Positions 5,678 to 59,208 of a stretch of 62,851 bases of DNA are shown piece after piece; position 1 is the stretch's first letter; every line of letters starts with the position of its first letter. Below the pieces are notes generated by a model. The model ran no database searches. It was not told the DNA's origin and saw only the letters and a program-made list of their open reading frames with translations. Made by a program: the position numbers and the translations under genes. Source of the DNA: an uncultured Bacilli bacterium (GTDB lineage: Bacteria; Bacillota_I; Bacilli_A; RF39; UBA660); contig CANRKU010000004.1 in assembly GCA_947631295.1 (NCBI GenBank), forward strand, positions 1 through 62,851, read 5' to 3'.

Positions 5678-5729
5678 GACACCTATTTTAATTTATATTA
5701 AAATATTATTAGAATAAGAGGCGAATATT

Positions 5730-15158: not shown

Positions 15159-15194
15159 CTATTATCACATTCAATAATATTTGTATAAATCAAA

Positions 15195-15223
15195 TTGACA
15201 AGCATTTATTTGAATGCTAAAAT
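15195..15223 (+). promoter_or_regulatory. sigmaA-type promoter for the glycine-rich protein gene
   Basis: TTGACA (15195-15200), 17-nt spacer, extended -10 TGcTAAAAT (15215-15223). GGAGG RBS at 15301-15305. Confidence 0.6.
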
Positions 15224-15311
15224 TACAGTATAATAGGATAGAATTACCCAAAGTAAACTATTATTAATAAAAACAAAGAAATAGCGAAGACTAGTAGTAT
15301 GGAGGTCTAAT

Positions 15312-17930
15312 ATGAAAAATGCTAATTTAAAAAATATAAAGAAAAAGAAAAATGAAAAGAAAGAAATTCTATGGATGTTAGTAGCTTTAGTTAGTTTAGC
15401 AGTAATTACTTTAGGAGTAAGTGTAGCATTTTTTAATTATACAAAAGAGGGAACAACCGAAAATACAGTAACAAGTGGTACTATTACATTTTTGTATACG
15501 GAAATATCAGGAGTAGGAAAAGGGATACAAATTAGTGATGCCTATCCGATGACAGATGAACAAGGAAAGAAGCAAACAGGACAAGGAAGCTATTTTGATT
15601 TTAAGATAACTAGTCAAACAGCAAGTACTATTTCTATTCCCTATGAGGTAACAGCTAGAAAGAGTAGTGATTCTACATTAGATGATCAAGTAGTAAAACT
15701 TTATTTAACAGAATTAAATGGTGATGAGGAAAAAGAAATTTTATTAGAAAACTATAATGAATTAGAAGATACCAGTCAAGAAACAGCTAAAGGATATACA
15801 GAAAAAGTAATTTATACAGGAAAAGTACCAGCAAATCAAAGTAATTATGAAAAGAATTTTAGACTAAGAATGTGGATAGATGAAAAAACAGATTTTAGTG
15901 GAAAAGAAGAAGAAACAGGAAATGTAACTTATCCATATAATGGGAAAACATTTACTCTAACAGTAAATGTATATTCAAATGGTAAAGTAGTAACGAATAA
16001 AGAAGGAGTAATGGAAGGAGATAGTATTTTATCTATTTTAAGTGATAATGAATTTGAAGATGGTTATTATCAATTTGAGGTGAAAGAAGAAACATATCCA
16101 GTGCATATGTATGTATTTGATGGTAATCAACATTGGACAAGTGAAGACGAAACTACATTTGGAGATGCACAAGATGTAGCAACAGCAACGGAAAATGCCA
16201 AGAATATGGTCATTGTAAAAGTAAATGGAAATCTAACTATAGATGAAGAAGTAACAGTAAAACCATATTATACAGAATATGGAGGACCAAAAGGATTCTT
16301 ATTATATGTAGAAGGAACTTTAACTAATAATGGAACGATAGATAATTCTCATGGAGCAAAAGCTGCAGGACAAAATGTATATTTATGGAAAAATTCTAAT
16401 GGAAGTTATGAAACTGTACCTGCTGTTGGAGCAACCGGAGGAACAGCTGTTTCTGGTACTGTAGTTGGAAATCCAGGTAGTGATGGAATAGGAAGACAAA
16501 CTGGTGGCGGTGCATCTGGGAGTGTATATTCTGGAACTTCTAGTGCAGGAGGAGATGGAACAAGTTATTCTGGAGGAACAGGTTCTGGATCTGGAGATAA
16601 AGGAAATGGACAGGCTGGAAATCCAAATGGAGGAGCAGGAGGAAATGCAGGAGGTTCAGGCGGCGGCGGTGGTGGCGGCGCTGGAAATCCTGGTGGATCT
16701 TCAGTAGGGGGAAATGCAACAGGAGGTTTCAATGGAACCGGAGGATTATTAATTATTTATTCTAATAAATTAATTAATAATGGATATGTTACAGCCAAAG
16801 GAGCTGCGGGTGGAACAGGAAATAATTTAGGAGGATCATCTGGAGGCGGTTCCATTAATATTTTTTATCGACAAGATATGAATGATTCTGGTACTATTAT
16901 AGCTCATGGCGGAAATGGAATATTAGGGGGAAATGGAACAAGCCATATGGGAATCATAGAAAAGGGTACTTATATAGAAAAAGAAAATTATCATTATTTA
17001 GTTTGGGAATTTGAATATACTGGTACTGAACAAGAATTTACTGCTTTATACAGTGGAAATTATAAAGTAGAATTATATGGTGCTCAAGGAGGAAGTATAG
17101 ATTCTTATACGGGAGGATTAGGATCTTATACAAAAGGAATTATTAATTTAAAGAAGAATCAAACTTTATATATTTATGTGGGAGAACAAGGATTTAATAA
17201 AGATAATTCTACTAAAACATCGGAATACACATTTAATGGAGGAGCCTCCGGTAATTTAAGGTGTTATGATTATAGAGGTGGAATTGGAACAAGTATTAGT
17301 GGTGGTGGTGCAACTGATGTTAGATTAAAAAATGGTCAATGGGATGATTTTAATAGTTTAAAATCTAGAATTATGGTAGCAGCTGGTGGCGGTGGTGGCT
17401 ATGATCTTGGTACGCATTCTGCTAAAGGTGGAGCAGGAGGTGGATTAGAGGGTTACTCTGGAGCAAAAGATACTGCTGTTTCAAATAATTACGCTGGATA
17501 TGGTGCCACCCAAAATTCAGGAGGAGATATTAACGGTAAATTTGGTAAAGGTGGAGTAGCTTCCCTTAATACATCTTGTAATTATTCTGAAGGAGCAGGA
17601 GGAGGTTCCGGATACTATGGTGGTGGTGGAACAAGGGGAACAGCTGATCTCACGTCTTCTAGTGCAGCAGGAGGCTCATCCTTTATTTCTGGACATGATG
17701 GGTGTGATGCTATTTTAGAAACATCTACCGAAACTAATATTCAGCATTCTAACCAAAGTATTCATTATTCGGGATTGTCCTTTACAAATACATTAATGAT
17801 AGATGGAGAAGGATACCAATGGACAAATGCGAAACAAAATTATATAGGAATGCCTTCTCATGATAGGCAAAGCACTATCACTGGAAATCAGGGAAATGGA
17901 TATGCTAAAATTAGTTATTTAGGAGAATAA
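15312..17930 (+). CDS. Secreted/anchored glycine-rich protein: TasA/SipW-cognate-like N-terminus, central Gly-rich repeat region, C-terminal ALK/LTK-type glycine-rich domain (Pfam Gly_rich-like)
   Basis: 872 aa. The N-terminal TM/signal is followed by AFFNYTKEGTTENTVTSGTITF. Central region has GGxGGxG runs including G7. The C-terminal part carries the hallmarks FEYTGTEQEFTA..GNYKVELYGAQGGS, AAGGGGGY, GGAGGGLEGYSG, GAGGGSGYYGGGG and AAGGSSFISG. Confidence 0.85.
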   Translation: MKNANLKNIKKKKNEKKEILWMLVALVSLAVITLGVSVAFFNYTKEGTTENTVTSGTITFLYTEISGVGKGIQISDAYPMTDEQGKKQTGQGSYFDFKITSQTASTISIPYEVTARKSSDSTLDDQVVKLYLTELNGDEEKEILLENYNELEDTSQETAKGYTEKVIYTGKVPANQSNYEKNFRLRMWIDEKTDFSGKEEETGNVTYPYNGKTFTLTVNVYSNGKVVTNKEGVMEGDSILSILSDNEFEDGYYQFEVKEETYPVHMYVFDGNQHWTSEDETTFGDAQDVATATENAKNMVIVKVNGNLTIDEEVTVKPYYTEYGGPKGFLLYVEGTLTNNGTIDNSHGAKAAGQNVYLWKNSNGSYETVPAVGATGGTAVSGTVVGNPGSDGIGRQTGGGASGSVYSGTSSAGGDGTSYSGGTGSGSGDKGNGQAGNPNGGAGGNAGGSGGGGGGGAGNPGGSSVGGNATGGFNGTGGLLIIYSNKLINNGYVTAKGAAGGTGNNLGGSSGGGSINIFYRQDMNDSGTIIAHGGNGILGGNGTSHMGIIEKGTYIEKENYHYLVWEFEYTGTEQEFTALYSGNYKVELYGAQGGSIDSYTGGLGSYTKGIINLKKNQTLYIYVGEQGFNKDNSTKTSEYTFNGGASGNLRCYDYRGGIGTSISGGGATDVRLKNGQWDDFNSLKSRIMVAAGGGGGYDLGTHSAKGGAGGGLEGYSGAKDTAVSNNYAGYGATQNSGGDINGKFGKGGVASLNTSCNYSEGAGGGSGYYGGGGTRGTADLTSSSAAGGSSFISGHDGCDAILETSTETNIQHSNQSIHYSGLSFTNTLMIDGEGYQWTNAKQNYIGMPSHDRQSTITGNQGNGYAKISYLGE

Positions 17931-29453: not shown

Positions 29454-30203
29454 ATGGTAAAAAAACAAAAAGATACAATCTATGCAATTAAAATAGAAAA
29501 CCTTTCCAAAAAATTTAAAATATTTTATGATAAACACTATACTTTAAAAGAAAAACTAGTTTTCTGGAAAAACAAAAAAACAGATATGAACGAAGTGTTA
29601 AAAAATATCAATTTAGTAATAAAACAAGGAGAATCTATTGCACTAATTGGAGTGAATGGAAGTGGAAAAAGTACTCTACTTAAACTAATGACCAAAATTA
29701 TTTATCCAACAACTGGAAGCATAAAAGTTAATGGGAAATTAACCTCACTACTAGAATTAGGAGCAGGATTTCATCCAGATTTTACGGGAAGAGAAAATAT
29801 CTATTTTAATGCTTCTATTTTTGGATTAACAGCAAAAGAAATAGACGATCGTGTGAATGACATTATATCATTCTCGGAATTAGGAGATTTAATAGATAGT
29901 CCAGTTAGGACCTATTCATCTGGGCAATATATGAGATTAGCATTTTCAATAGCAATTAATGTAGATGCGGAAATTTTGTTGATAGATGAAATTTTAGCAG
30001 TAGGAGATCAACATTTTCAAGAAAAATGTTTTGAAAAATTAGTAGAATTAAAAAATAGTGGAAAAACAATCGTTATTGTTAGCCATAGTTTAGACTCTGT
30101 AAAGAGATTCTGCGATAGAGCAGTTTGGATTAATAATGGAGAAATAGCTATGGATGGAAAAATTGATAATGTTATTGAAGAATACTTAAAGGTGTGTGGA
30201 TAA
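29454..30203 (+). CDS. Polysaccharide/teichoic-acid export ABC transporter ATP-binding protein (Wzt/TagH-type, no C-terminal carbohydrate-binding extension)
   Basis: Walker A GVNGSGKST, signature YSSGQYMRL, Walker B ILLIDEILAVGD. Start set to ATG 29454 because the ORF-track start 29388 lies inside the predicted promoter. Confidence 0.9.
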   Translation: MVKKQKDTIYAIKIENLSKKFKIFYDKHYTLKEKLVFWKNKKTDMNEVLKNINLVIKQGESIALIGVNGSGKSTLLKLMTKIIYPTTGSIKVNGKLTSLLELGAGFHPDFTGRENIYFNASIFGLTAKEIDDRVNDIISFSELGDLIDSPVRTYSSGQYMRLAFSIAINVDAEILLIDEILAVGDQHFQEKCFEKLVELKNSGKTIVIVSHSLDSVKRFCDRAVWINNGEIAMDGKIDNVIEEYLKVCG

Positions 30204-30205
30204 AA

Positions 30206-30985
30206 ATGAAAGATTTACTACTGAATTTGTATAACTATCGACAGTTATTAAAGAGCAATGTAAAAAAGGAAATCCGAGGAAAATATAAAGGATCATTTTT
30301 AGGAATTTTATGGTCATTTGTAAATCCGTTATTAACTGCTCTAATCTATGCAATTGTTTTTCCTATCATTTTAAAAAGTTCAGAGCCTAATTATGTTACA
30401 TTTATTGTAATTGGAATATTACCTTGGACTTATTTCACAACTGTTATTATGCAAGCAACCAGTACTGTTTTAGTGAATGCAGGGATTATTAAAAAAGTAT
30501 ATTTTCCTAGAGAGATTCTTCCAATATCCATTAATACAAGCGGTTTAATCAATTTTTTGATTTCATGTTTAATTATATTTATTTTCTTAATTTTTAGTGG
30601 AATTGGATTTAGTTGGTATATTTTACTCTTACCATTAATTATTATGACACAATATATTTTACAGCAAGGAATTATATTTATTACTAGTGCTGTTAATGTC
30701 TATATAAGAGATGCCGAATATATCATTAATTTTTTTATTAATATGTTATTTTACGCTACACCTATTTTGTATTCAGCGGAGATGTTTAAAAATAGTTCAT
30801 TTAGTTGGATTATTAATTTCAACCCTATGGCTGTAATTATTAATTGCTATCGCGATGTCTTATTTTATAAATCTATGCCGCAAATAAAATCTTTATTGAT
30901 AGTACTATTTTTCAGTTGTATATTATCTTATATAGGATTAATTATCTTTAAAAAATTAGAAAAAGGTTTTGCAGAAGAAATTTAA
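30206..30985 (+). CDS. ABC-2 type polysaccharide/teichoic-acid export permease (Wzm/TagG-type)
   Basis: Six-TM ABC-2 permease with N-terminal KKEIRGKYKGSFLGILWSFVNPLL, the characteristic Wzm/TagG start. Confidence 0.85.
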   Translation: MKDLLLNLYNYRQLLKSNVKKEIRGKYKGSFLGILWSFVNPLLTALIYAIVFPIILKSSEPNYVTFIVIGILPWTYFTTVIMQATSTVLVNAGIIKKVYFPREILPISINTSGLINFLISCLIIFIFLIFSGIGFSWYILLLPLIIMTQYILQQGIIFITSAVNVYIRDAEYIINFFINMLFYATPILYSAEMFKNSSFSWIINFNPMAVIINCYRDVLFYKSMPQIKSLLIVLFFSCILSYIGLIIFKKLEKGFAEEI

Positions 30986-42225: not shown

Positions 42226-44478
42226 ATGAATAAAAAACTAATGGTTTTCATTGTATTATTGTTATTGATAATTCCAAGTATAAAAACTTATGCATTGTCT
42301 GATAGTTTTTATGAGGCTGAATATATTCCAGGAGAATATATAAAAAAATTTAGAGGAGATTCTGGAAAATATGAGCAACTACGATTTTTCAGAAGAACGA
42401 GTGATAATCAGCCCGTATATTGTATTGAATTATGGGAAACATTATCTAGTTATAAAAACCTAACTGGTTATGATACAAATCAATATGATAAAGCAAATAT
42501 TAGCTATCATACATGGGAAAGAATTATGCTAATTGCCTACTATGGATATGGATACGAAAATCATACTGACAGTAAATGGTATGCCATTACACAATATATG
42601 ATTTGGAAAGAAACATCACCAGATACGAATCTTTACTTTACAGATACATTAAATGGCAAAAAAATTACTAAATATGAAGAAGAAATGAATGAAATCAATG
42701 AATTAATTCAAAAGTATTTAAAATTGCCATCTTTTAATAATGCAAATTATGAATTAAGATATAACGAAAGTATTACGATAGAAGATACAAATCATGTTTT
42801 AGAACAATTTGAAATTACCTATGATGGTGGTGCTGAACTAATAAAAGAAGGAGATTTTCTAACAATTAAAACAAAAGAAGTAGGAAAATCTAAACTCTAT
42901 TTTGCAAATGATGGTAAAAGATTTGAAACAGCACCTATCATATATGTAGATCCTACTGGACAAGATGTATTAGCAGCAGGTAAGCATTATCCTATTTATA
43001 TGATAGTAACATTAAATATGCCTACATCCAGTATCACTATAAATAAATGGGATAAAGATAATCAAAATAATATTCCACAAGGAGAAGCGAAACTTTCCGG
43101 AAGCAAATTTCAATTATTAGATATGGAAAACCAAGTAGTAGCAGAAAAAGAAATAGATAGAAATGGAATACTTACTTTTGAAAATATTGGATATGGAAAT
43201 TATAATTTAAAAGAAATATTTCCAGGTGAAGGATATGTACTAAACCATGAAATATTACCCATAAATGTTAATGAAAAAATTAAAAATATTACATTCTATA
43301 ATCAAGTAATTAAAAATAAAATTTCTTTTCAAAAATATTTAAAAAATCCTTTAACCGGTAAAATTAAACAAGAAGAAGGAGCAACTTTTTCTATCTATAA
43401 TAAAGATAATCAAAAGATAAAAACCTTTACTACGGATAATAATGGATATTATGAATTAGAATTGCCTTATGGTCATTATATAATAAGACAAGATAGTGGA
43501 ACTAAAAATCATTATCACATTGAAGAATTTGAATTTCAAATAACAGAAGATGGTCTCATTCAAAATTTTGACATGTATAATGAAGAATTAACAGCTAATA
43601 TAAAAGTAATAAATACTGATTTTGATTCTAATTTACCACTATTAGAAAGCGGAGCAACTTTCCGAATCAAAAATTTAGATACCAATCAATATATTTTAGA
43701 TCAAAATAATAATATACTTTTATTAGAAACCAATGATTTTGGAAATACTAGTGTATTAAAATTATCCAGTGGTAGATATCAAATAGAACAGATAGATGCT
43801 ATATACGGTTATTTAGTAAATGATCATGTTTTTGATTTTGAAATTAGTGATGATAGTGAATTTCTATTAGATAAGAATAATCAAAAATATGTAGAAATTA
43901 CAGTTCCTAATAGAAAACAAAAAAGTAGAATTGAAATAGAAAAATATATAGAATATTACTTAGATGATGAGCTACAAAAAAAAGAAAAAGATGACTCTAT
44001 TATAATTACTATTTATGCAAAAGAAGATATTTATTCAAAGGATGGTATTAAAATATATGAAAAAGATGAGGAAATAGAGAAAGTAAAATATAAAAATGGA
44101 AAAATGATGACATCGCCTTTAGTATTTGGAACATATTATCTACAAAATCCAATAAATAATAAACAGGTAGAATTGGTACTGGATTCTATTCAAAATAAAA
44201 AAGTAGAGCTTTTAGAACAAGTTTTTGAATATACTGAAAAAATACCTGAAACAGATCCAGAAGATAACAACCCAAAAGATAATACACAAGAACAAATACC
44301 AGAAGAAAAGAAAGATATAGAGGATATTCCTGATATAAAGGATGAAAATAGTATGGAAATAATTGTTCCTAATACTTTAAACGATGAAAAATTTTCTATA
44401 AATAAATTAGGAATATTAATGATCTTTCTTGGACTATTATTCTGGAAAAAGGAAAAAAAGTATGAAAAAAAGAACTAA
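42226..44478 (+). CDS. Cell-surface adhesin with N-terminal Cys-Gln thioester domain and about four CnaB/SpaA-type (prealbumin-like) repeats
   Basis: 750 aa with a signal peptide. Thioester motifs: YCIE (Cys codon 42421-42423) and TQYMIW (Gln codon 42592-42594). Repeats such as GSKFQLLD...NGILTFENIGYGNYNLKEIFPGEGY. C-terminal VPNTL, hydrophobic helix and KKEKKYEKKN tail. Confidence 0.8.
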   Translation: MNKKLMVFIVLLLLIIPSIKTYALSDSFYEAEYIPGEYIKKFRGDSGKYEQLRFFRRTSDNQPVYCIELWETLSSYKNLTGYDTNQYDKANISYHTWERIMLIAYYGYGYENHTDSKWYAITQYMIWKETSPDTNLYFTDTLNGKKITKYEEEMNEINELIQKYLKLPSFNNANYELRYNESITIEDTNHVLEQFEITYDGGAELIKEGDFLTIKTKEVGKSKLYFANDGKRFETAPIIYVDPTGQDVLAAGKHYPIYMIVTLNMPTSSITINKWDKDNQNNIPQGEAKLSGSKFQLLDMENQVVAEKEIDRNGILTFENIGYGNYNLKEIFPGEGYVLNHEILPINVNEKIKNITFYNQVIKNKISFQKYLKNPLTGKIKQEEGATFSIYNKDNQKIKTFTTDNNGYYELELPYGHYIIRQDSGTKNHYHIEEFEFQITEDGLIQNFDMYNEELTANIKVINTDFDSNLPLLESGATFRIKNLDTNQYILDQNNNILLLETNDFGNTSVLKLSSGRYQIEQIDAIYGYLVNDHVFDFEISDDSEFLLDKNNQKYVEITVPNRKQKSRIEIEKYIEYYLDDELQKKEKDDSIIITIYAKEDIYSKDGIKIYEKDEEIEKVKYKNGKMMTSPLVFGTYYLQNPINNKQVELVLDSIQNKKVELLEQVFEYTEKIPETDPEDNNPKDNTQEQIPEEKKDIEDIPDIKDENSMEIIVPNTLNDEKFSINKLGILMIFLGLLFWKKEKKYEKKN

Positions 44479-45034
44479 AGGATTGATTCTATTAATATTA
44501 GGAACCTTTTTATTTAGTTATCAACACATATCAGAAAGAAAAGAAATAATAACCGAGAAAAATAAAGTAGAATATACTATCCAGAAACAAGTAGGATACC
44601 TTAAAAAAGACAATATTGATATTTATGATGCTATCTTATCCATACCACAGATTAAACTCAAAAAGGGAATTTATAAGAAAGAGGATAAGCGAAATAATAT
44701 TGAGGAAAATGTCACCATTCACGAAAAATCAGATTATCCTGATCAAGAAAATTCGAATGTTATTTTAATGGCTCATTCTGGTAATAGTAAAAAATCTTTT
44801 TTCAAAGATTTGAATCAATTAAATAGTGATAGTCTAGTCGAGTTATATTATAATAATACAAAATATGTTTATAAAATAGAAAAGTATATTACTCAAGAAA
44901 AAAGTGGAATTTTATCTATTGATAAGAAATCAAATACAAAAACGATTACATTAATTACTTGTAGTCAAATAGATAAATCAAAACAACTTATCTATATTGG
45001 CAATATTATTGATGAAATCAAATATACATCATAA
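44462..45034 (+). CDS. Sortase-family transpeptidase-like protein (small, class uncertain)
   Basis: 190 aa from ATG 44462, overlapping the adhesin gene by 17 nt. N-terminal TM anchor, His motif VILMAHSG, Cys motif TITLITCS. No Arg codon downstream of the Cys. Confidence 0.7.
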   Translation: MKKRTKGLILLILGTFLFSYQHISERKEIITEKNKVEYTIQKQVGYLKKDNIDIYDAILSIPQIKLKKGIYKKEDKRNNIEENVTIHEKSDYPDQENSNVILMAHSGNSKKSFFKDLNQLNSDSLVELYYNNTKYVYKIEKYITQEKSGILSIDKKSNTKTITLITCSQIDKSKQLIYIGNIIDEIKYTS

Positions 45035-45105: not shown

Positions 45106-45134
45106 TTGAGTTTTTAACCATTATTGATTATAAT
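45106..45134 (+). promoter_or_regulatory. sigmaA-type promoter for the distal part of the glycan locus
   Basis: TTGAGT (45106-45111), 17-nt spacer, TATAAT (45129-45134). The ORF-track TTG start at 45124 falls inside it. Confidence 0.55.
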
Positions 45135-45150
45135 AATAATAGGTGATAAC

Positions 45151-46296
45151 ATGAAAAAAATAACGATTTTTTCTCTTCATCTAGGATATGGGGGAATAGA
45201 AAGATGTGTAGCTAATTTAGCAAACTTATTATGTAATGAATATCAAGTAGAAATTGTTTCTACCTATAAATTAGCAGATACACCAGCATTTGAAATTGAT
45301 GAAAAAGTAAAAGTTACTTACTTAATAGAAAAATATAAACCAAATCGTGAAGAATGGAAAAAAGCAGTAAAAAAAGTGAAGCCAATTAAATTTCTAAAAG
45401 AATCCTATAAGTCAATAGCTGTTTTATTTTTAAGAAGAAAAAAAACAGTAAAGGCAATGAAAGAATGTGATAGTGATATTCTAATTTCTACTAGAGTTCT
45501 TTTTAATCAATGGTTAGGAATGTATGGAAGAAAAAAAGCTTATAAAATAGGATGGGAACATAATCACCATCATCAAGATATGGAATATGTGAAAGGAGTC
45601 ATTCACTCTTGTAATAATTTAGATGCTCTAGTATTAGTGTCTGATTCCTTACGTAATTTTTATAAAAAGAAAATGAAAGAAAAAAAATTAAAATGCAGAT
45701 GCATATTTATTCCAAATATGCTAGAAGAAATACCAGATATTCCTTCTAAGTTAACAGAAAAAAGAATCATTTCAGTAGGAAGATTTTCAAAAGAAAAAGG
45801 TTATGTAGATTTAATTGAAATATTTAAAAAATTTCATGAAATTTGTCCAGATTGGCACTTGGATTTAGTAGGTGATGGACCTGAAAAAAATAAAATAGTA
45901 GATCATATTTATGAATATCAATTAACAGATTCAATTACCGTTCACGGATATTTAAAAAAGAAAGAAATTAATAAATTATTGAGTAAATCTTCTTTTTATA
46001 TCATGACATCTTATACAGAATCCTTTGGAATTGTATTAATTGAAGCAATGGCTTATGGTATTCCATGTCTATCTTTTACATCAGCAGAAGGAGCTAATGA
46101 TTTAATCAAAAATGATGAGAATGGATATTTAATTGAAAATAGGGACTTTGATGCAATGGTTGAAAAAATGCAAGACTTAGCAACCGATAAGAAAAAAAGA
46201 GTAAGATTAGGAAAAAATGCTAGAGAGTTTAGTTTAAATTATAGTAGTGATATCGTCAAAAAAGAATGGTTAGAATTATTAAAAAGAAAGGCTTAG
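45151..46296 (+). CDS. Family 4 (GT-B) glycosyltransferase
   Basis: N-terminal ITIFSLHLGYGGIERCV and C-terminal TESFGIVLIEAMAYGIPCLS (E-x7-E region). Confidence 0.85.
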   Translation: MKKITIFSLHLGYGGIERCVANLANLLCNEYQVEIVSTYKLADTPAFEIDEKVKVTYLIEKYKPNREEWKKAVKKVKPIKFLKESYKSIAVLFLRRKKTVKAMKECDSDILISTRVLFNQWLGMYGRKKAYKIGWEHNHHHQDMEYVKGVIHSCNNLDALVLVSDSLRNFYKKKMKEKKLKCRCIFIPNMLEEIPDIPSKLTEKRIISVGRFSKEKGYVDLIEIFKKFHEICPDWHLDLVGDGPEKNKIVDHIYEYQLTDSITVHGYLKKKEINKLLSKSSFYIMTSYTESFGIVLIEAMAYGIPCLSFTSAEGANDLIKNDENGYLIENRDFDAMVEKMQDLATDKKKRVRLGKNAREFSLNYSSDIVKKEWLELLKRKA

Positions 46297-46297
46297 T

Positions 46298-46768
46298 ATG
46301 AAAAAAGTATTATTTGTTGCTAGTACAGGTGGGCATTTATCAGAATTAATGATGTTAAATGACTTATTTAAAAAATATGATTATCATATTATTACGGAGA
46401 AAACGAAAACCACAATTGGACTAAAAGAAAAATATGGTAAAAGAATTGATTACTTAATTTATGGTACAAAAGACCATCCTTTTTCTTATCCTTTTAAATT
46501 ATTTGGAAATTGTATCAAAAGTATCTATTTCTATTTTAAAATAAAGCCAGAATTTATTGTTACGACAGGGGCACACACAGCAGGACCAATTTGTTGTTTA
46601 GGAAAAATTTTTGGTACTAGAATCATTTATATTGAAACGTTTGCCAATATGCACACCAAAACCATTACTGGAAGATTATTGTATAAATTTGCAGATCTAT
46701 TTATTGTACAGTGGAAAAGTATGTTAAAGTTATATCCGAAAGCTACTTATGGTGGATGGATTTATTAG
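46298..46768 (+). CDS. Alg14-like glycosyltransferase membrane/accessory subunit (Cps14F/PssD-like)
   Basis: 156 aa, VLFVASTGGHLSELMML and TGAHTAGP blocks typical of Alg14-like proteins. Confidence 0.75.
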   Translation: MKKVLFVASTGGHLSELMMLNDLFKKYDYHIITEKTKTTIGLKEKYGKRIDYLIYGTKDHPFSYPFKLFGNCIKSIYFYFKIKPEFIVTTGAHTAGPICCLGKIFGTRIIYIETFANMHTKTITGRLLYKFADLFIVQWKSMLKLYPKATYGGWIY

Positions 46769-46776
46769 GAGAGAAT

Positions 46777-47685
46777 ATGATATTAATTACATTAGGAACA
46801 CAAGATAAGAGTTTTGTAAGAATATTAAAAAAAGTAGAAGAACTAATTGATAAAAAAGTAATCAATGAAGAAGTAATTGTTCAAGCCGGGTATACAAAAT
46901 ATGAATCGAAAAAGATGAAAATATTTGATTATGTAGAAAAGAAAAAGCTGGAAGAGTATATCGAAAAAAGTAGTTTTATAATTACGCATGCTGGTGTTGG
47001 TACTATTTTTGATTGTTTAAAGAAAAATAAAAAGATTATTGCTGTACCAAGACTTTCTAAATATCATGAACATAATAATGATCACCAATTACAGATTGTA
47101 GAAGAATTTAGTAAAGAAAATTTTATCATACCTGTCTACGAAATGGATGAATTAGAGGATGCTATTCAAAAAATAAAGACTTTTCAACCAAACAAGTATC
47201 AAAGTAATAATCAAAATATGATCCACTTAGTTAGTAATTATATTGATCAAAATGAAAAAGAGAGTATCATGACAAATATCAAAAAATTCTTTACTACGTA
47301 TAGAGAAATTATCATGTACCTAATTTTTGGAGTTTTAACGACTATAGTCAGTTTAGTAGTTTATTATTTATTAGTGTATACGTTATTAAATCCTAATGAA
47401 CCAATTCAACTACAGATTGCCAATATTCTTTCCTGGATAGCAAGTGTTACTTTTGCCTATGTAACAAATCGTAGTTTTGTTTTCCAAAGTAAAAGTAAAA
47501 ATAGACTAAAAGAAGCAAGTAGTTTTTTCTTATCTAGGGGAATAACTTTAATTATGGATATGGTTATTATGTTTGTAGGAGTGACATTATTTCATGGAAA
47601 TGATAAAATATTAAAACTACTTTCTCAAGTAATAGTAATTATGTCTAATTATGTATTTTCTAAGTTATTTGTATTTAAAAAATAA
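46777..47685 (+). CDS. Alg13-like glycosyltransferase catalytic subunit (Glyco_tran_28_C) fused to a C-terminal GtrA-like four-TM domain
   Basis: Start at ATG 46777 (MILITLGTQ). N-terminal part has ITHAGVGTIFDCL...AVPR...NDHQLQIVEEF. The C-terminal 130 aa has the GtrA pattern: YLIFGVLTTIVS...ANILSWIASVTFAYVTNRSFVF...VIVIMSNYVFSKLFVF. Confidence 0.75.
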   Translation: MILITLGTQDKSFVRILKKVEELIDKKVINEEVIVQAGYTKYESKKMKIFDYVEKKKLEEYIEKSSFIITHAGVGTIFDCLKKNKKIIAVPRLSKYHEHNNDHQLQIVEEFSKENFIIPVYEMDELEDAIQKIKTFQPNKYQSNNQNMIHLVSNYIDQNEKESIMTNIKKFFTTYREIIMYLIFGVLTTIVSLVVYYLLVYTLLNPNEPIQLQIANILSWIASVTFAYVTNRSFVFQSKSKNRLKEASSFFLSRGITLIMDMVIMFVGVTLFHGNDKILKLLSQVIVIMSNYVFSKLFVFKK

Positions 47686-47723
47686 TTATCATATGTTAAA
47701 CTGTTGGTAAGAAGGTGTAGAAA

Positions 47724-48665
47724 ATGAAAAAGATTTCTATTGTTGTTCCTTGTTATAATGAAGAAGAATCATTACCTTTATTTTATGAAGAAGTAAATAA
47801 AGTATCCAAAAAAATGGAACAAAAAGCAGATTTTGAATTTGTATTTGTAAATGATGGTAGTAAAGATAAAACATTAGAAAAGTTAAGAGAATTAGCCAAA
47901 AAAGATAAAAGAGTAAGATATATTTCTTTTTCTAGAAACTTTGGAAAAGAAGCAGGAATATTAGCAGGATTAGAGCATGCAACAGGAGATTATATTACAA
48001 CCATGGATGCTGATTTACAAGATCCTCCTATGTTATTAGTAGAAATGTTTGATACGTTAGAAGAAACAGAATATGATTGCTGTGCTACAAAAAGTACTAA
48101 TCGCAAAGGATACTCTTTTTTAAGAAAAATATTTACCAAATGGTTTTATTCAATTATTGGAAAAATATCCAAAACAGAAATGGTACCAGGTGCTAGAGAT
48201 TTTCGATTGATGACAAGACAAATGGTAGATGCTATTCTTTCCATGAAGGAGTATAACCGTTATTCCAAAGGTTTATTTAGTTTTGTAGGTTTTCAAACAA
48301 AATGGATTGAATTTGATATTGAAGATCGAAAGGTAGGTACTTCAAAATTTAATTTCTGGAAATTATTCTCTTATGCCATTGAGGGGATTGTTGCTTTTTC
48401 AACAACACCATTAGTATTTGCAGCGCTAGTAGGAGTATTATTCTGTGTGATTGCCTTTATCTTAATTATTTTTATTATCGTAAAAACGTTAATTTGGGGA
48501 GATCCTGTTGGTGGTTGGCCAAGTATGGTATGTATTATGTTTTTTGTTGGTGGAGTTCAATTATTCTGTACTGGAATTATTGGAGAGTATCTAGCTAAAA
48601 CTTACTTAGAAACAAAACATAGGCCAGTATATATTATTAAAGAAACAGAAAAAGATTTAAAGTAG
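47724..48665 (+). CDS. Polyprenyl-phosphate sugar synthase GT2 with two C-terminal TM helices (GtrB/CsbB-type)
   Basis: ISIVVPCYNEEESL...VFVNDGSKDKT...DADLQDPP, plus C-terminal TM pair (PLVFAALVGVLFCVIAFILIIFII, MVCIMFFVGGVQLFCTGIIGEY). Confidence 0.85.
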   Translation: MKKISIVVPCYNEEESLPLFYEEVNKVSKKMEQKADFEFVFVNDGSKDKTLEKLRELAKKDKRVRYISFSRNFGKEAGILAGLEHATGDYITTMDADLQDPPMLLVEMFDTLEETEYDCCATKSTNRKGYSFLRKIFTKWFYSIIGKISKTEMVPGARDFRLMTRQMVDAILSMKEYNRYSKGLFSFVGFQTKWIEFDIEDRKVGTSKFNFWKLFSYAIEGIVAFSTTPLVFAALVGVLFCVIAFILIIFIIVKTLIWGDPVGGWPSMVCIMFFVGGVQLFCTGIIGEYLAKTYLETKHRPVYIIKETEKDLK

Positions 48666-53778: not shown

Positions 53779-55635
53779 ATGCAAGCAATAATAAATAAAA
53801 ATTTTAGAAAGTTGGGTGTTAATATGTTTTTTGTTATTTATACTGATTTAAAAAATAAAATTACACGTTACTACTATTTAAAAAATAATGATATTTATTA
53901 TAATGAATATATAAACAATGTATATAAAGTATTGAAACAAAATTCATTATATGATTTTTATAAATTGTTTAGGATTTCTAATAAGGCAAAGTTTTTAGAA
54001 AATAATAACCAATATACAATTTATCTTGATGAAAACGGGTACAAACATTATATCAAAGATTTTAAAGAAGATTTTCTACAATTCTTTTTAAACAACGGTC
54101 AAGAATGTATTATGTACTCTAACAATAACAGTAATCAAAACCAAAAAGTTAAAAAATTTCTTTTTAAGAGTGCTCTACTTTCTGTTTCCATAATCTGTTC
54201 TATTGAATTATTTAAACTTATGGAAAATAATAATTATTTTAATAAAGATATAAAAGCTGAAATTTCTTATGAAGCCATAAATACAGAAATTAACTACTCT
54301 GATATTTTTAACATAATTAGTAAATTAGAAAATATACCTGTTGAATATAGAAATAAAATTTTAAATAGTGGTATTATTGAAAGTATTCTTCCATACTATG
54401 ATGATATAGAATTATCCATTTTAATGAATAGTAAATTAGATAATTTATCTATTGAATATTATGATGATAAAGATATTCAAGAACTATTTATCGAAGGCTA
54501 TTATTCCCCTTTAATACCAAATGTTATTTATCTTAAACATGGTACAAATGGAAAAGCTTTTACTCATGAATTTATACATCTTCTTCAACATCATAAATAT
54601 TCACTTGAATATTTAGTTGAACCAACAGCTGCATTAATGGATATGGAATTTTTTGAAAGTGATAATGTATGCTATAAAGATGAAATAAGCAACTTAAAAT
54701 TATTAATTTGCACAATTGGTCCTGAACCTATTTTACGTTGTAATTTTAGTGGTGATGAAAGCATGATATTAGACATCTTGGAAAATAATTTAGAAAAAGA
54801 AGATTATGAAAAAATGGTTTCCTATCTAACAGATAGTAGTGCAACTAATAAAACTGAACAAAATCAAGAAATCAGAAAATTAATAGAAACATTATATAAA
54901 AATATGTATAAAACTGAAATGAAAGATACTTTACCTGGCTATGACCTAATTACAAACCAAAATATTTACTCAAATATAGTAGATAATAGATATTACTTAA
55001 ATAAAAATGAATTAGAACTGTCAGGAGAAATTTCTTTTGAAATTAACTCTGAATTTTATGATCTAATACCAAAAAACATTAATCTTATTAGCACAAAAGA
55101 AATAAATTACTATAGAAAAGAAATAACTGAAGAAGAATATAATCAACTAGATTCTAATAACAATCAAAAGGATTACGAAATTAAAATAGAATATAGTGAT
55201 GAAGTGAAAGAAATAAGAAATTCTGAATATGGAATGGAAGTAGTCGTTTCTGAAGATGATAGATTGTATCAGTATAATCATACAACAGCTATTGAAAAAG
55301 GGTACATAAAATATATTTATATTACCAGTGAAGATAAAATTGATTTAGAAGATAATACTTGGATATTTGATCATCAAAATAAAAAAATAACTGCCACTTT
55401 ACCACCAATCACAGCCTCAAATTCATTAAATGAAAATTTAGAAATCCAAGTCGAGCAAATGCTCACAGGTATGATCAATGGTACAATGGATACAAATGGT
55501 AATTTTATTAAAGACAATCAAAATTCTAATAATAACAAATTAAGGGGATTTTCCTATATTTCACTAATTGGTATTATTTCAATTATTACATCCTTAGGCA
55601 TTTTATTAATCGGAACATATATTTGTATGAAATAA
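53779..55635 (+). CDS. Hypothetical N-rich membrane protein with HExxH zincin-like motif
   Basis: 618 aa, start uncertain (53779 or 53824). Internal TM (SALLSVSIICSIELF), FTHEFIHLLQHH motif with downstream Glu residues, and a C-terminal TM anchor (ISLIGIISIITSLGILLIGTYI). Confidence 0.55.
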   Translation: MQAIINKNFRKLGVNMFFVIYTDLKNKITRYYYLKNNDIYYNEYINNVYKVLKQNSLYDFYKLFRISNKAKFLENNNQYTIYLDENGYKHYIKDFKEDFLQFFLNNGQECIMYSNNNSNQNQKVKKFLFKSALLSVSIICSIELFKLMENNNYFNKDIKAEISYEAINTEINYSDIFNIISKLENIPVEYRNKILNSGIIESILPYYDDIELSILMNSKLDNLSIEYYDDKDIQELFIEGYYSPLIPNVIYLKHGTNGKAFTHEFIHLLQHHKYSLEYLVEPTAALMDMEFFESDNVCYKDEISNLKLLICTIGPEPILRCNFSGDESMILDILENNLEKEDYEKMVSYLTDSSATNKTEQNQEIRKLIETLYKNMYKTEMKDTLPGYDLITNQNIYSNIVDNRYYLNKNELELSGEISFEINSEFYDLIPKNINLISTKEINYYRKEITEEEYNQLDSNNNQKDYEIKIEYSDEVKEIRNSEYGMEVVVSEDDRLYQYNHTTAIEKGYIKYIYITSEDKIDLEDNTWIFDHQNKKITATLPPITASNSLNENLEIQVEQMLTGMINGTMDTNGNFIKDNQNSNNNKLRGFSYISLIGIISIITSLGILLIGTYICMK

Positions 55636-55662
55636 ATTATTCTAATTTAATAGAAAAAATAA

Positions 55663-55920
55663 TTAAATAAACTTAACACAATTAATAGTCATGATGTAGC
55701 ACAATTTGATGATTTATATGATTATGATATTTGGACTGACACTATCAAATTAACTAGAAAAACTCTAAATGTTGTGATTGGTTTTAATATTTCTGATAGA
55801 GCTAATGCAATCGCTATGAATGTAAAAACACAAGAAGTAACTTCTACTTTAGACGGAAATCCTGAAGATATTATGGTAGATATCTCCCCATTTTCTTATA
55901 TGATCCCTTTAATTTGGTGA
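55663..55920 (+). pseudogene. Start-less ORF remnant (about 85 codons)
   Basis: Open frame from the stop at 55660-55662 to TGA 55918-55920. It reads ...NSHDVAQFDDLYDYDIWTDTIKLTRKTLNVVIGFNISDRANAIAMNV... with no ATG/GTG/TTG plus RBS at its 5' end. Likely the C-terminal fragment of a decayed gene. Confidence 0.3.
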
Positions 55921-56065
55921 TAGATTTATGCATGCTGTTAAATTTGAACTTGATGATGAAGAAAAGGAATATAATTAATCTTATGTAAAAAAATACCCTG
56001 TAAAGAAATAAATAAAAATCTACAGAAAAATATGTAAGCTAAAAAATTTATATTAAACTGTGACT

Positions 56066-56089
56066 AAGCAAGAATTTCTTGCTTTTTTT
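56066..56089 (+). terminator. Intrinsic terminator upstream of the large RNA locus
   Basis: AAGCAAG (56066-56072) / AATTT / CTTGCTT (56078-56084), with T run to 56089. Confidence 0.7.
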
Positions 56090-56223
56090 CATGAAACATA
56101 GTATAACTAGGAACAATTGAATGGGGATTACGTTGAATATAAGTGTATAACCAAAAGAATGAAAAATACAGATTTTATACCAGCAAGATATCTTAAAAAT
56201 GTAAAATGCATTTAATAATCATA

Positions 56224-56252
56224 TTGAAAAATAGAAACAAATATAATATAAT
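56224..56252 (+). promoter_or_regulatory. Near-consensus sigmaA promoter driving the large non-coding RNA
   Basis: TTGAAA (56224-56229), exactly 17-nt spacer, TATAAT (56247-56252). The GC-rich segment starts about 7-10 nt downstream. Confidence 0.65.
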
Positions 56253-56258
56253 AAAAAT

Positions 56259-56830
56259 AAGAATTGGTGCATTATTCTAGTCACAATCAGTTGTTACGAA
56301 GACGAGCCTAAAAATTCGTTAAAGGGCACATCTATGAAGCATCTGGTGCTTGCTTAGTACGCCCAGTATTGGGTGGGTGCTGGATGGAAAGAGACTATGG
56401 GCGCTTATAATGGCATATGAGGAACGACCCATTTTCTCACGGAGACCTAATCTTGTGGAACATTGTTTTACGACTTAGGATTAAACCTATCTTGTGGAGA
56501 AATCTATGGATAGTGTAGCTTGGCTTGCGTGGTGTGTGGGGATAGAGACAACTTTTGAAGAGGTGTACATCTTTTCATTAAGTATTGCTCCTTGAAACAC
56601 ATACTGCAAAAAAGCATAGTAATAACACCGAAAGTGCTTGAGGAAAACTCCTAGAATGTACTGTTAATATAGGATTGCAGTGTATACTAAGTGGTAATCA
56701 AGTCATAGAATTGGTAACAATCTATTGCTTCCTTTCAAGGGGAACCGCTTACTGGTAACGGTAAGTAGGAAGTAGGGAAATCCAACTTGACCTAAGATAC
56801 AAAGTTTACTATATTAATGACCATTTCTTA
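56259..56830 (+). ncRNA. Large structured non-coding RNA of about 570 nt, candidate OLE (ornate, large, extremophilic) RNA or analogous large RNA; ends approximate
   Basis: No ORF of 60 aa or more on either strand across 55636-56860. 56261-56800 is about 41% G+C by hand count (219/540), against visibly AT-rich flanks. It has its own promoter. Several plus-strand-specific hairpins contain G-U pairs, including a GNRA (GAAA)-capped helix at 56487-56513. It runs without a terminator into a four-TM DxxxD protein gene, as OLE does with oapA. Confidence 0.6.
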
Positions 56831-56860
56831 TTTTTTTATGCAAAAGTTGAGGAAAAATAA

Positions 56861-57448
56861 ATGAAACTAAAAAAGTTTAAAGAAAAATATTCAAAAAAAG
56901 CTTTAAAAAAGCCTGTAAAAAATAGAAAATTAGTAGATTATAAATGGATATCAATAGTCACCATTTTAGCCTTTTTTATTTCCCTAATCTTTTCTCTTTT
57001 TTCAGAAATTATTATTCCAAATGCCAATAGTATCATTGCGATAATCGTTATTTTACTATTTATTGGAATTGGAATTTTATTTGACATGGTTGGAATTGCG
57101 ATTACAGTAGCAGATATCAAAACTTTTAATTCAATGGCTACCAAGCAAGTAAGAGGAGCACGCCTAGCGGTTAAACTCATTCAAAATAATGAAAAAGCAT
57201 CTAGTTTTTGTAATGATGTGATAGGTGATATTTGTGGAATTATTAGTGGTTCAGCAGGAGTTGCCTTATCCAGCATTTTAGCAACAACCTTTCATTTAAA
57301 TCTTTTTGTAATTAGTTTATTAATCACTGCTATTATAGCAGCTTTAACAATTGGTGGAAAAGCAGTAGGTAAAGCAACGGCTATTAATAAAAGCACACCA
57401 ATACTCTTTGAATTTTCTAAAATAGTAGCTTGTTTTTACCGAAAATAA
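56861..57448 (+). CDS. oapA: Four-TM membrane protein with DxxxD motif, candidate OLE-associated protein A
   Basis: 195 aa (about 21 kDa) with a basic N-terminus and four predicted TM helices. The motif D-V-I-G-D (Asp codons 57215-57217 and 57227-57229) sits at the start of TM3. RBS GAGGA lies 8 nt upstream of the ATG, directly 3' of the structured RNA. Confidence 0.55.
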   Translation: MKLKKFKEKYSKKALKKPVKNRKLVDYKWISIVTILAFFISLIFSLFSEIIIPNANSIIAIIVILLFIGIGILFDMVGIAITVADIKTFNSMATKQVRGARLAVKLIQNNEKASSFCNDVIGDICGIISGSAGVALSSILATTFHLNLFVISLLITAIIAALTIGGKAVGKATAINKSTPILFEFSKIVACFYRK

Positions 57449-57519
57449 GTATCATATAATTATAAAATATAAGTCTCAAAAGGAAAAAAACTTTTTCATT
57501 AGAAAAGGTTTCTTTTTTA

Positions 57520-57549
57520 TTAGACAAAATTCTATTTTTTTGATATACT
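57520..57549 (+). promoter_or_regulatory. sigmaA-type promoter with extended -10
   Basis: TTAGAC (57520-57525), 18-nt spacer, TGaTATACT (57541-57549). Confidence 0.45.
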
Positions 57550-57573
57550 GTCATAAGAATAGGAGAATTGCAA

Positions 57574-58131
57574 ATGAAAAACAAAAAATTAGCAATGGTT
57601 GTTTTAATTGTTGGACTCATTTTCATTATTATGGGAATTACAATAGGTACTTACCTTTATATTGATAATCAAAATAAAGAAGATCAAAAGACAGAGGATA
57701 ATATTTTAAATAGTTATGATGTTTTTAAAAACAATATTGATATTTTTAATAATGAAAGAGCTACTTATTATGATAGTGTAGATAAAAACTTATTTCCAGA
57801 GTCTGTAGAAGAAGAATATGAAAATTGGATAGCAGTTTTAAATACTTATACGAATGCTATTGATGTAGTGGAAGAATCTTCTAAAGAATTAAAAGAACAG
57901 TGTGTAAATAAATACCATTCTAATGAAGATGTAAAAAATAAATGTGAATCTTTTGTGATTGCCTATGAAACAGTAGTAAATTATTATACAAAAGACATTA
58001 ATACTTTTAATCAAACAATCGAAAATTATTTAAATAGTAAATCAGAGGTCAAAGAAGGTATTAGTTTATATCAATTAAAATATGATTATACTGATATTAA
58101 CCTAGATGGAAAATTTATTGGTAAAGATTAA
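57574..58131 (+). CDS. Hypothetical N-terminally anchored extracellular protein
   Basis: ATG 57574 lies 7 nt after AGGAGA. One TM helix (LAMVVLIVGLIFIIMGITIGTYLYI) followed by a helical, Cys-containing ectodomain. No recognisable motif. Confidence 0.55.
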   Translation: MKNKKLAMVVLIVGLIFIIMGITIGTYLYIDNQNKEDQKTEDNILNSYDVFKNNIDIFNNERATYYDSVDKNLFPESVEEEYENWIAVLNTYTNAIDVVEESSKELKEQCVNKYHSNEDVKNKCESFVIAYETVVNYYTKDINTFNQTIENYLNSKSEVKEGISLYQLKYDYTDINLDGKFIGKD

Positions 58132-58143
58132 TGAGAGGTAATT

Positions 58144-59208
58144 ATGACAAATAAAAATAAAAAGAAGAAATTAAAAATGAATTTAAAATTAAAAAGAGTA
58201 TTTCTATTATTGTTTTCTTTAGGAATTATTGGCCTATCAACAGGATTATTTCTATTATATGGACCATTTACTTGGGTAAGAAATACTTTAATTACTACTG
58301 CTATGACTACTATGAGTCATCAATATTTAGCACAGTGGTTTTATTCGGATGAATATATTAATAAAATTTTAGCTGATAATTATATTTTAGAAACTAATGA
58401 AAATACAAATCCCAATTTAATTGATATGCCAGATTTTGATAGCAATACAAAATATGCTTCAAAGTATGAAAAAGATATTTTTGAAGGAGTAGATGAAAAT
58501 ACCATTTATAAGAAAATAGAAGTAAATGGTTCTGGATATGATGGGTATGTTATAGCTATTTATAAACCAGAAAAAGTAAAATTAGCAGTAAGTTCAAAAT
58601 TAGGAACAGAAGGAGAAACCCTAAAAACGATGGCTCAAAAAAATAATGCATTAATTACGATGAATGGTGGCGGTTTCTTTGATCCAACTTGGGCTGGAAA
58701 TGGTGGTATTCCTCATGGTACTGTCATTAAAGATGGTAGAATTTTATATGATTATACAGATGCTCAAGTAGGCGGAGGATTTATTGGCTTTGATAAAGAT
58801 AATAAACTAATTCTAGGTAGAATGACAAAAGAACAAGCAATAGCCAAAGGAATGCGTGATGGAATAGAATTTGGTCCATTCTTAATTGTAAATGGAAAAC
58901 CATCCTTTATTAAAGGTGATGGTGGTTGGGGAATTGCTCCACGTAGTGCCATTGGTCAAAGAGCAGATGGAATTGTTTTATTTGTTGTCATTAATGGTAG
59001 AAATTATAAAAAAGGAATTTTAGGAATTGATATGGTTGGATTAACCGAATTAATGCAAAACTATGGTGCTGTTAATGCTGCTAACTTAGATGGTGGTACT
59101 TCATCTGCTTTACTAGAAGGACAAGAATTAATTAATAATCCAATTTCCTCATCTGGTAATCAAGGAGTTTTAAGAAGAATACCTACTGCATGGATTGTAA
59201 CAGAGTAA
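58144..59208 (+). CDS. Phosphodiester glycosidase family protein (DUF2233/NAGPA-like)
   Basis: 354 aa with an N-terminal TM anchor. Conserved blocks: MNGGGF, GFIGFD, EFGPFLIVNG, PRSAIGQRADG and AANLDGGTSS. Confidence 0.8.
   Translation: MTNKNKKKKLKMNLKLKRVFLLLFSLGIIGLSTGLFLLYGPFTWVRNTLITTAMTTMSHQYLAQWFYSDEYINKILADNYILETNENTNPNLIDMPDFDSNTKYASKYEKDIFEGVDENTIYKKIEVNGSGYDGYVIAIYKPEKVKLAVSSKLGTEGETLKTMAQKNNALITMNGGGFFDPTWAGNGGIPHGTVIKDGRILYDYTDAQVGGGFIGFDKDNKLILGRMTKEQAIAKGMRDGIEFGPFLIVNGKPSFIKGDGGWGIAPRSAIGQRADGIVLFVVINGRNYKKGILGIDMVGLTELMQNYGAVNAANLDGGTSSALLEGQELINNPISSSGNQGVLRRIPTAWIVTE

Follow-up and report, generated by a model that had tools for sequence, protein, structure and literature searches.

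Positions 56224-57448 of contig CANRKU010000004.1, a 62,851-nt stretch of DNA called the window here, almost certainly hold an ole-oapA unit, that is, a full-length OLE RNA gene followed by the gene of its membrane partner OapA, in an uncultured Bacillota bacterium from the gut that is anaerobic and AT-rich. The locus is a further instance of an already described class and not a new type of system. Its features, all on the plus strand, were as follows.

56224-56252, + strand: sigma-70-type ole promoter, with -35 box TTGAAA (56224-56229), a 17-nt spacer and -10 box TATAAT (56247-56252); 11 of 12 positions match, the best in the region.
56248-56840, + strand: OLE RNA gene, full-length type (Rfam RF01071 match; covariation in 64 homologues).
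56705-56725, + strand: P13 hairpin of OLE, reading AUAGA, a bulged A (A56710), UUG, a GUAA loop, CAA and UCUAU (Rfam consensus alignment).
56823-56839, + strand: U-rich tail AUUUCUUAUUUUUUUAU, immediately following the helix that closes the 3' domain; not a hairpin terminator (sequence).
56849-56853, + strand: ribosome-binding site (RBS) GAGGA, 7 nt ahead of the oapA start (sequence).
56861-57448, + strand: oapA, encoding 195 amino acids (aa) with four transmembrane (TM) helices, a basic N-terminus and DxxxD (open reading frame [ORF], homology, synteny, AlphaFold2 model and fold matches).
57215-57229, + strand: codons for the OapA-specific DxxxD, D119-V-I-G-D123, close to where TM3 begins (Asp invariant in 50 homologues).
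57473-57525, + strand: terminator after oapA, a hairpin between an A-tract and a U-tract (-14.7 kcal/mol, z = -3.9, 0 of 200 shuffles as stable).

We scanned the whole window against Rfam 15 at gathering thresholds and added a permissive scan (E <= 1) over 55300-58300. The first-pass annotation of this DNA, made from the letters alone, had proposed an Rfam scan for its candidate OLE RNA; the scan returned OLE (RF01071) at 420.4 bits (gathering score 50; E 4.5e-120) over model positions 1-616 of 616, with no rival family. OLE was the sole match at the gathering threshold in the window, and within 55300-58300 the permissive scan added only a chance CRISPR-repeat match (E 0.63). ROOL, GOLLD, HEARO, raiA, RNase P and tmRNA gave no match at E <= 1 in 55300-58300 and none at gathering score window-wide.

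The match spanned 593 nt, which places the RNA at ~580-593 nt (corrected from an earlier estimate of about 570 nt) and ~23 nt below the consensus. Every consensus helix was present except one 4-bp hairpin (Rfam model positions 424-435), and the hairpins read as P7, P8 and P9 were trimmed, P7 by 10 nt and P8 and P9 by 2-4 nt. The 4-bp hairpin was also missing from all 'Bacilli'-type relatives and is therefore a clade trait, not decay. P7 and P8 (model 198-241 and 249-277) both aligned in the window at ~56446-56514, an assignment to Rfam positions 198-277 that was drawn from text descriptions using the published P5/P6 positions; with both hairpins present, the RNA is of the full-length type and not the RF39-associated variant 2. 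At all columns invariant across 64 aligned RNAs the window carried the consensus residue, for example in UAUYCUAGU, CUAAAA, GCCCA, AAUGGCAU, CUAAGUGG and GGGAAAUCC...ACCUAAG, and the GNRA loops of P13 and P14.1 were kept. Size variants occurred among the relatives, whose loci carry L numbers: L011, L032 and L034 (partly L028) were without the hairpins read as P7/P8, as in published variant 2, with L011, L032 and L034 scoring 275-312 bits against the OLE model, and the OLE RNAs of L033, L066 and L037 were without the P9 tip.

The co-crystal structure with OapB identified a GNRA tetraloop, together with a bulge of one nucleotide, as the OapB-binding determinants (PMC7936274). By sequence, P13 of the window retains a candidate OapB site of this kind, with its GNRA loop and one-nucleotide bulge, and all 7 of 7 pairs of this helix (helix 19 of the alignment) covaried. 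One relative, L067, carried a 43-nt insertion inside the P13 loop.

The aligned sequences show that compensatory evolution maintains the OLE helices. The alignment comprised 64 full-length RNAs from 80 genomic loci that had been fetched via the protein alone, with OLE located in them by nhmmer. RNAalifold resolved 24 helices with 140 pairs, and covariation in the aligned regions of relatives, a check raised in the first-pass annotation, was evident as double compensatory changes in 104 of the 140. Standard pairs filled 96.7% of cells, compared with 77% in column shuffles and 37-47% when partners were slid by 1-3 columns, the latter being a generous control because the structure was derived from the same 64-RNA alignment; the outcome was unambiguous all the same, and the fold agrees with the independent Rfam model. 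The covariation score was 0.588 versus 0.21, and 0 of 500 shuffles scored as high.

Three of five hairpins proposed in the first-pass annotation, at 56487-56513, 56557-56576 and 56747-56766, match family helices, the last being actually 8 bp with a GUAA loop. The other two clash with the consensus. In the one at 56361-56374, GCCCA is no stem strand but forms the invariant loop of a long hairpin read as P5; in the one at 56729-56744, UUCC partners GGAA at ~56770, and UUUCAAGGGGAACC forms a conserved internal loop. A protein-coding reading of the RNA region was considered and rejected: only 40-42-aa ORFs were found, alignment indels were not multiples of three, and substitutions kept pairing, not codons. 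A conserved coding frame in relatives, which had been named beforehand as an observation that would speak against an RNA, is thus something the alignment argues against.

Two compositional claims made beforehand also held. The interval 55636-56860 (1225 nt) was the longest stretch of the window without an ORF of at least 60 aa in any frame, the runner-up being 484 nt, and the G+C content of 56261-56800 was 219/540, or 40.6% exactly (about 41% by the earlier hand count), versus 26.9% window-wide. Only 0.9% of 540-nt windows were as G+C-rich, and the other such region lay within a glycine-rich protein gene at ~16.1-18.0 kb. The G+C excess is expected, as it would be for any structured RNA in an AT-rich genome. 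The 484-nt gap, at 14828-15311, had no Rfam match; just after it, the gene at 15312-17930, which holds the window's sole other G+C-rich stretch, encodes an 872-aa protein with an ALK/LTK-type glycine-rich domain.

The 195-aa protein encoded downstream of the RNA is OapA, as judged from its DxxxD, four TM helices, basic N-terminus and CNNM-like fold without CBS or CorC domains. Its size (195 aa, ~21 kDa), its four TM helices, the D-V-I-G-D at 57215-57229 and the GAGGA RBS were all as described in the first-pass annotation. Curated libraries name no family for it: NCBIfam gave no match, the PDB none by sequence, and Pfam none above cut-off, with CNNM (PF01595) reaching 18.8 bits against a cut-off of 28.4 and no further domains. 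The same sub-threshold behavior was described by Fernando & Breaker, in whose CNNM hidden Markov model search OapA came next-best to MpfA. Membership was therefore set by synteny, homology and fold.

The protein has 5162 relatives in 90% clusters; at 50% identity there were 1095 representative clusters, with lengths of mostly 185-215 aa. Residues D75, D119, G122, D123, G130, K167 and K171 were invariant in 50 diverse HMMER homologues, and the window's oapA has all of them; the DxxxD claim rests on this HMMER-derived alignment, as among the fetched loci it would be circular, the genome scan having used DxxxD as a pattern. The N-terminus was basic, with 13 K/R versus 2 D/E in the first 28 residues and a median net charge of the N-terminal segment of +6.5 across 76 homologues, and we infer that this positive cluster lies on the cytoplasmic face. 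The AlphaFold2 model, for which the alignment served as input (predicted local distance difference test score, pLDDT, 92.5), has four long helices at residues 27-54, 57-83, 110-144 and 148-176, in agreement with a hydropathy scan. The five best PDB matches found with Foldseek were all CNNM domains, from archaeal CorB (7M1T, two chains, and 7M1U) and bacterial CorC (7CFF and 7CFG), with probability 0.94-1.0. A structural resemblance to CorB/CNNM has already been published for H. halodurans OapA.

RNA and protein were closely associated across genomes. Among loci fetched via the protein alone, 77 of 82 carried OLE upstream on the same strand, and four of the five exceptions were cut at a contig end. 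The fifth, L040, was the sole OLE-less case among loci with enough flanking sequence: it has an OapA homologue (5519-6079, 51% identical to that of the window) and 5.5 kb of upstream DNA in which neither nhmmer nor Rfam found OLE. Neighbor orders were obtained by clustering all ORFs adjoining the fetched loci. Loci labeled Clostridia showed, by Pfam, the fixed order xseA-xseB-ispA-[OLE]-OapA-dxs-FtsJ/S4 methyltransferase (tlyA-like)-nadK-argR-recN, which is the canonical OLE cluster. The window's OapA shared 43% identity over 190 aa (E 3e-48) with the OapA of such a canonical cluster in Candidatus Petromonas tenebris (L076); with the OapA from an Agathobaculum metagenome-assembled genome (MAG; L049) the value was 45% over 176 aa (E 2e-52).

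The first-pass annotation had left two alternatives, a bona fide OLE/OapA locus outside its usual cluster and a distinct OLE-analogous system. The 420-bit RNA match and the homology to canonical-cluster OapA bear out the former. A large RNA and a membrane protein merely analogous to OLE/OapA would have the different gene neighborhood, and nothing else, in their favor. This second alternative is ruled out by sequence-and-structure homology to RF01071 over the whole model and by OapA homology to canonical clusters; the RNA also matches no other Rfam family, and the residual chance of mere analogy is vanishingly small.

The same data bear on whether the RNA is a decaying, non-functional OLE relic in a reduced genome, which we consider highly improbable. 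Reduced gut lineages have been reported to trim OLE and to largely lack OapB and OapC, the window's RNA misses one small hairpin and has some shortened stems, and a neighboring gene is a pseudogene. Against decay, however, stand the full-length 420-bit match, the consensus residue at all columns invariant in 64 RNAs, the strong promoter and an intact oapA with every invariant residue; moreover, the missing hairpin is absent throughout the 'Bacilli'-type relatives and so marks the clade.

The near-consensus promoter TTGAAA-17-TATAAT at 56224-56252, noticed in the first pass, was recovered with 11 matching positions. Conserved nucleotides of the RNA begin with GGUGCA at 56266, 13 nt past the end of the -10 box, and the predicted ole start lies at ~56259-56260, 6-7 nt upstream of GGUGCA. 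Of 66 related loci whose upstream sequence was long enough, 44 had a promoter matching at least 10 of 12 positions within 60 nt, versus 1.5% of random 60-nt windows from the same loci, and the distance from the end of the -10 box to this anchor was 10-19 nt across related loci, those in canonical clusters included. A proximal OLE promoter has been demonstrated experimentally in B. halodurans (Wallace 2012, PMC3413148). An own proximal promoter is a trait of the family, not a peculiarity of this locus.

With this promoter, no hairpin terminator ahead of oapA and a terminator behind it, ole and oapA probably form one unit. A terminator scan and folding found no hairpin terminator between the RNA and the ATG at 56861 (local z = +0.3), in line with the first-pass annotation, and only the U-tract at 56823-56839 lies there. 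This U-rich tail could be a site of partial termination or processing. The oapA gene starts 21 nt past the end of the Rfam match, and since nothing but the U-rich tail follows the closing helix, the simplest reading is read-through into oapA, which lies 38 nt further on and has a good RBS. The terminator at 57473-57525 was missed by a simple terminator scanner, as it has too few G-C pairs.

It is possible, though less probable, that ole and oapA are two units, with OLE ending at the 56823-56839 U-tract and oapA served by its own weak promoter or by rare read-through; the two would then be neighbors without the transcriptional fusion proposed in the first pass. Many relatives have a clear hairpin terminator between the genes, often followed by a -10-like element, a U7 run comes right after the closing helix here, the promoter-like TTGACC-17-TATATT lies at 56787-56815, and OLE levels in B. 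halodurans far exceed those of typical mRNAs. Yet a hairpin terminator is missing at this place from the window as well as from L003 and L004, its two closest relatives, and the gap to the ATG is a mere 38 nt with a good RBS. The promoter-like site inside the RNA coincides with OLE nucleotides that are universally conserved (CCAACUUGACCUAAG) and with the closing helix; we rejected it as probably a by-product of RNA conservation. A single ole-oapA unit remains our preferred reading for the window. Because L003, L004 and the window lack a terminator that many relatives possess (L020, L021, L022, L027, L030, L034, L035, L048, L054, L076 and others, often with a second -10-like box behind it), ole-oapA coupling varies between species.

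Several points weigh against the identification of a functional, co-transcribed OLE/OapA locus. Co-transcription of ole and oapA is deduced only from the missing hairpin terminator, and the U7 tract could end part of the transcripts. The OapA comparison was made with proteins defined by canonical synteny and not with the biochemically studied H. halodurans OapA (BH2780), and the Foldseek E-values of the CNNM matches were modest (9.6e-3 to 0.93; TM-score ~0.47). OapB (KOW) and OapC (L7Ae) were seen neither in the scanned window ORFs of at least 100 aa nor by eye in six ORFs of 45-99 aa, an absence that, in a 62.8-kb window, says little about the whole genome. Finally, every functional step for this organism is carried over from model species.

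The window belongs to the chromosome of an anaerobic Firmicute with a cell wall. Besides BipA, LspA, RluD, RuvX and MltG, its genes specify an LCP ligase, a glucosaminidase, a PASTA protein and a sortase with a SpaA pilin; also present are a hybrid histidine kinase, PFOR and a glycan-biosynthesis cluster of 23 kb. PFOR, sortase, LCP and PASTA proteins are typical of such Firmicutes. The pilin, of SpaA type with a thioester domain, is followed by its sortase at 42226-45034; together with the LCP, PASTA and MltG genes, this pair shows that the lineage, labeled 'Tenericutes', has a cell wall. The nearest proteins and genome records were named as Bacilli, Tenericutes or Mollicutes gut MAGs. Nine related contigs (L005, L009, L010, L018, L026, L027, L030, L037 and L040) were titled 'uncultured Muribaculaceae' or 'Bacteroidaceae', yet their genes resemble Bacilli loci; the titles are probably a matter of mis-binning or mislabeling, and it has been remarked in print that OLE matches outside Bacillota look like Bacillota DNA.

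Three features flank the unit.

55678-56002, + strand: pseudogene remnant of a PgeF/YfiH-like (Cu-oxidase_4) gene (tblastn with the L004 ortholog).
56066-56091, + strand: intrinsic terminator closing the upstream decayed unit, an 8-bp stem at 56066-56084 plus a T-run (-10.2 kcal/mol, z = -2.9).
57568-59208, + strand: conserved downstream pair of a 187-aa N-terminally anchored protein (g7; 57568-58131) and an NAGPA-type phosphodiester glycosidase (PF09992; 58144-59208) (synteny, Pfam).

A gene remnant beside the locus and a terminator insulating it from upstream genes had both been described in the first pass, and both were recovered, the terminator as the 56066-56084 stem with its T-run (z = -2.9) and the remnant as a PgeF/YfiH-like pseudogene. 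Residues 77-173 and 252-278 of the 279 in the L004 ortholog align to the remnant at 55-63% identity, and the rest is missing; in L003 and L004, the closest relatives, the PgeF/YfiH-like gene is intact and is the immediate neighbor of OLE on the upstream side, the L003 ortholog matching PF02578. Just upstream of the remnant is a species-specific 618-aa HExxH protein (53779-55635) without a Pfam family.

Downstream, the order ole-oapA-g7-NAGPA was kept in 8 loci of relatives, besides the window and its own two contigs (L001 and L002). The loci listed for the pair were L003, L005, L007, L012, L014, L017, L019 and L038; L012, whose g7 call of 212 aa shares 113 nt with the NAGPA ORF, is counted as a ninth locus with the pair. 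OapA identity across pair-bearing loci ranged from 51% to 89%, with differing upstream genes and with PFOR after NAGPA in 5, and the gap from oapA to the next gene was -4 to 119 nt. The g7 homologues (185-202 aa) share two conserved Cys and a C-terminal D(I/V)NxDGxFxGK motif and belong to no Pfam family. We treat the pair as context, its membership in the ole-oapA system being unproven.

None of the xseA, xseB, ispA, dxs, tlyA, nadK, argR or recN domains was found in the window ORFs of at least 100 aa that were scanned (62.8 kb; the 263-aa ORF at 30194-30985 was left out), as the first-pass annotation had held for the canonical operon neighbors. Five of the six ORFs below 100 aa were read by eye, and the 48-aa ORF at 55774-55920 was put through Pfam. 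Across the related loci, at least one canonical neighbor occurred in 32 of 80, essentially all those labeled Clostridia plus one Bacilli MAG. The other 48, nearly all 'Bacilli/Tenericutes/Mollicutes' MAGs nearest the window, had none within the fetched flanks, which reached at most ~8 kb per side. The non-canonical context is normal for this clade of uncultured gut Bacilli and is therefore no sign of recent relocation; published work already notes OLE RNAs in uncultured, reduced-genome gut clades.

The first-pass description of a 'relocated, independently transcribed' locus was accordingly right about the promoter, which is real, and overstated otherwise, as such a promoter is a general property of ole and the context is typical of the clade. 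Recent relocation or horizontal acquisition would account for the odd neighbors and the G+C contrast, with no canonical neighbor in the window ORFs scanned, an RNA of 38-41% G+C in a 27% G+C genome and a decayed gene immediately upstream. We consider it very unlikely, however. The downstream order of oapA, the 187-aa protein and NAGPA (with PFOR in 5) persists in 8 relatives' loci down to an OapA identity of 51%, in addition to the ninth with overlapping ORF calls, and every canonical neighbor is missing from 48 of 80 related loci. A G+C excess is what a structured RNA is expected to show, and oapA has the same AT-rich composition as the DNA around it; close to the locus, no signature of an integrase, a transposase or repeats was noticed.

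The neighborhoods of this clade recurrently involve the envelope. Upstream glycosyltransferases were present in 15 related loci and the window, comprising an Alg13/14-like (GT28_C) pair, GT2, GT1 and a TagO/WecA-like Glycos_transf_4. In L008, L009, L015, L016, L023, L026, L028, L029, L035 and L041, recurrent OLE-upstream glycosyltransferases and a LysM protein replace xseAB-ispA; the window's own envelope glycosyltransferase genes are at 45124-48665. Among the genes that cluster with ole, published summaries already include some for cell-wall biosynthesis. The envelope neighbors, among them the small anchored, extracytoplasmic 187-aa protein and NAGPA downstream, could be lineage-specific partners or clients of the OLE ribonucleoprotein (RNP). 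That ole-oapA has, in one sub-clade, become uncoupled from the isoprenoid/DNA-repair cluster and functionally tied instead to envelope glycopolymer metabolism is a speculative proposal that we hold to be rather unlikely. If true, it would bear on a recent proposal that places OLE domain 2 outside the membrane near the cell wall.

What the locus does can be proposed by transfer from the RNAs of Halalkalibacterium halodurans and Clostridium (PMC12265935, PMC3413148, PMC7936274, PMC11332333). OLE RNA is abundant and stable in B. halodurans (PMC3413148), and OapA binds it cooperatively and takes it to the membrane (Block et al. 2011, as cited in PMC12265935). The RNA dimerizes and may span the bilayer, OapA being needed for membrane localization, and H. 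halodurans that has lost the OLE RNP becomes more sensitive to alcohols, to cold, to Mg2+ and to poor carbon sources. By analogy, the ole promoter of the window would yield an abundant, stable ~580-nt RNA, and some read-through or processing would supply oapA mRNA. The RNA would fold, dimerize and be bound cooperatively by OapA dimers, which would deliver it to the cell membrane and perhaps take it across. This OLE-OapA RNP would help the cell cope with stresses such as short-chain alcohols, cold, excess Mg2+ and poor carbon sources, and it may act by modulating divalent-cation flux through the CNNM-like OapA. Most likely, then, a membrane-bound RNP would tune ion flux or envelope physiology under stress.

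To our knowledge, the biochemical function of OLE is still unknown in the field; few bacterial non-coding RNAs in that position are as large or as well conserved, and well-annotated members aid comparative work. The present instance adds little that is new, the promoter having been known since 2012 and the non-canonical context being the rule in the clade. It documents that uncultured, AT-rich gut Bacilli have kept both OapA and full-length OLE, that conservation of the proximal promoter extends across the OLE family, and that in this clade the locus adjoins envelope-glycan genes instead of the ispA/dxs/recN cluster. The practical value is that an RNA gene and oapA can be annotated in place of 'intergenic' and 'hypothetical protein'. 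A modest comparative lead concerns which neighbors OLE function can do without; the sole lead beyond what is known is the conserved envelope-related neighborhood.

Compared with known systems, the RNA shares with the OLE consensus a length of ~600 nt with many nearly invariant nucleotides and an ornate structure (~25 helices, of which 24 were found). With the full-length type of RF01071 (Fernando & Breaker 2024) it shares the whole 616-position model, the conserved nucleotides and the long-range pairings, the hairpins read as P5-P9 and P12-P15, an own proximal promoter, oapA immediately downstream and an anaerobic Bacillota host. It differs from that type in having no hairpin 424-435, shortened P7/P8/P9 and ~23 nt less, in lying outside the ispA/dxs/recN cluster, and in its host, an uncultured gut MAG lineage and not an extremophile; residence in the xseAB-ispA / dxs-tlyA-nadK-argR-recN cluster, which is typical of OLE and not strictly defining, was not observed. 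Uncultured, reduced-genome gut Bacillota are also the hosts of OLE variant 1 (TANB77-type) and variant 2 (RF39-type), but the window keeps P7, P8 and the P13 OapB site and hence has neither variant. The Mg2+ transporters CNNM, CorB, CorC and MpfA (PF01595) provide the best structural matches of the predicted OapA fold, with a weak sequence match of 18.8 bits; OapA has four TM helices instead of three, the DxxxD that is absent from CNNM, and neither the CBS pair nor the CorC/HlyC domain. The window's OapA is thus not a member of PF01595, the resemblance being at the level of the fold. With the OapA proteins of H. halodurans (BH2780) and C. botulinum (CLB_RS09010), in turn, it shares a mass of ~21 kDa, four TM helices, DxxxD in TM3, a basic N-terminus and a gene directly 3' of ole.

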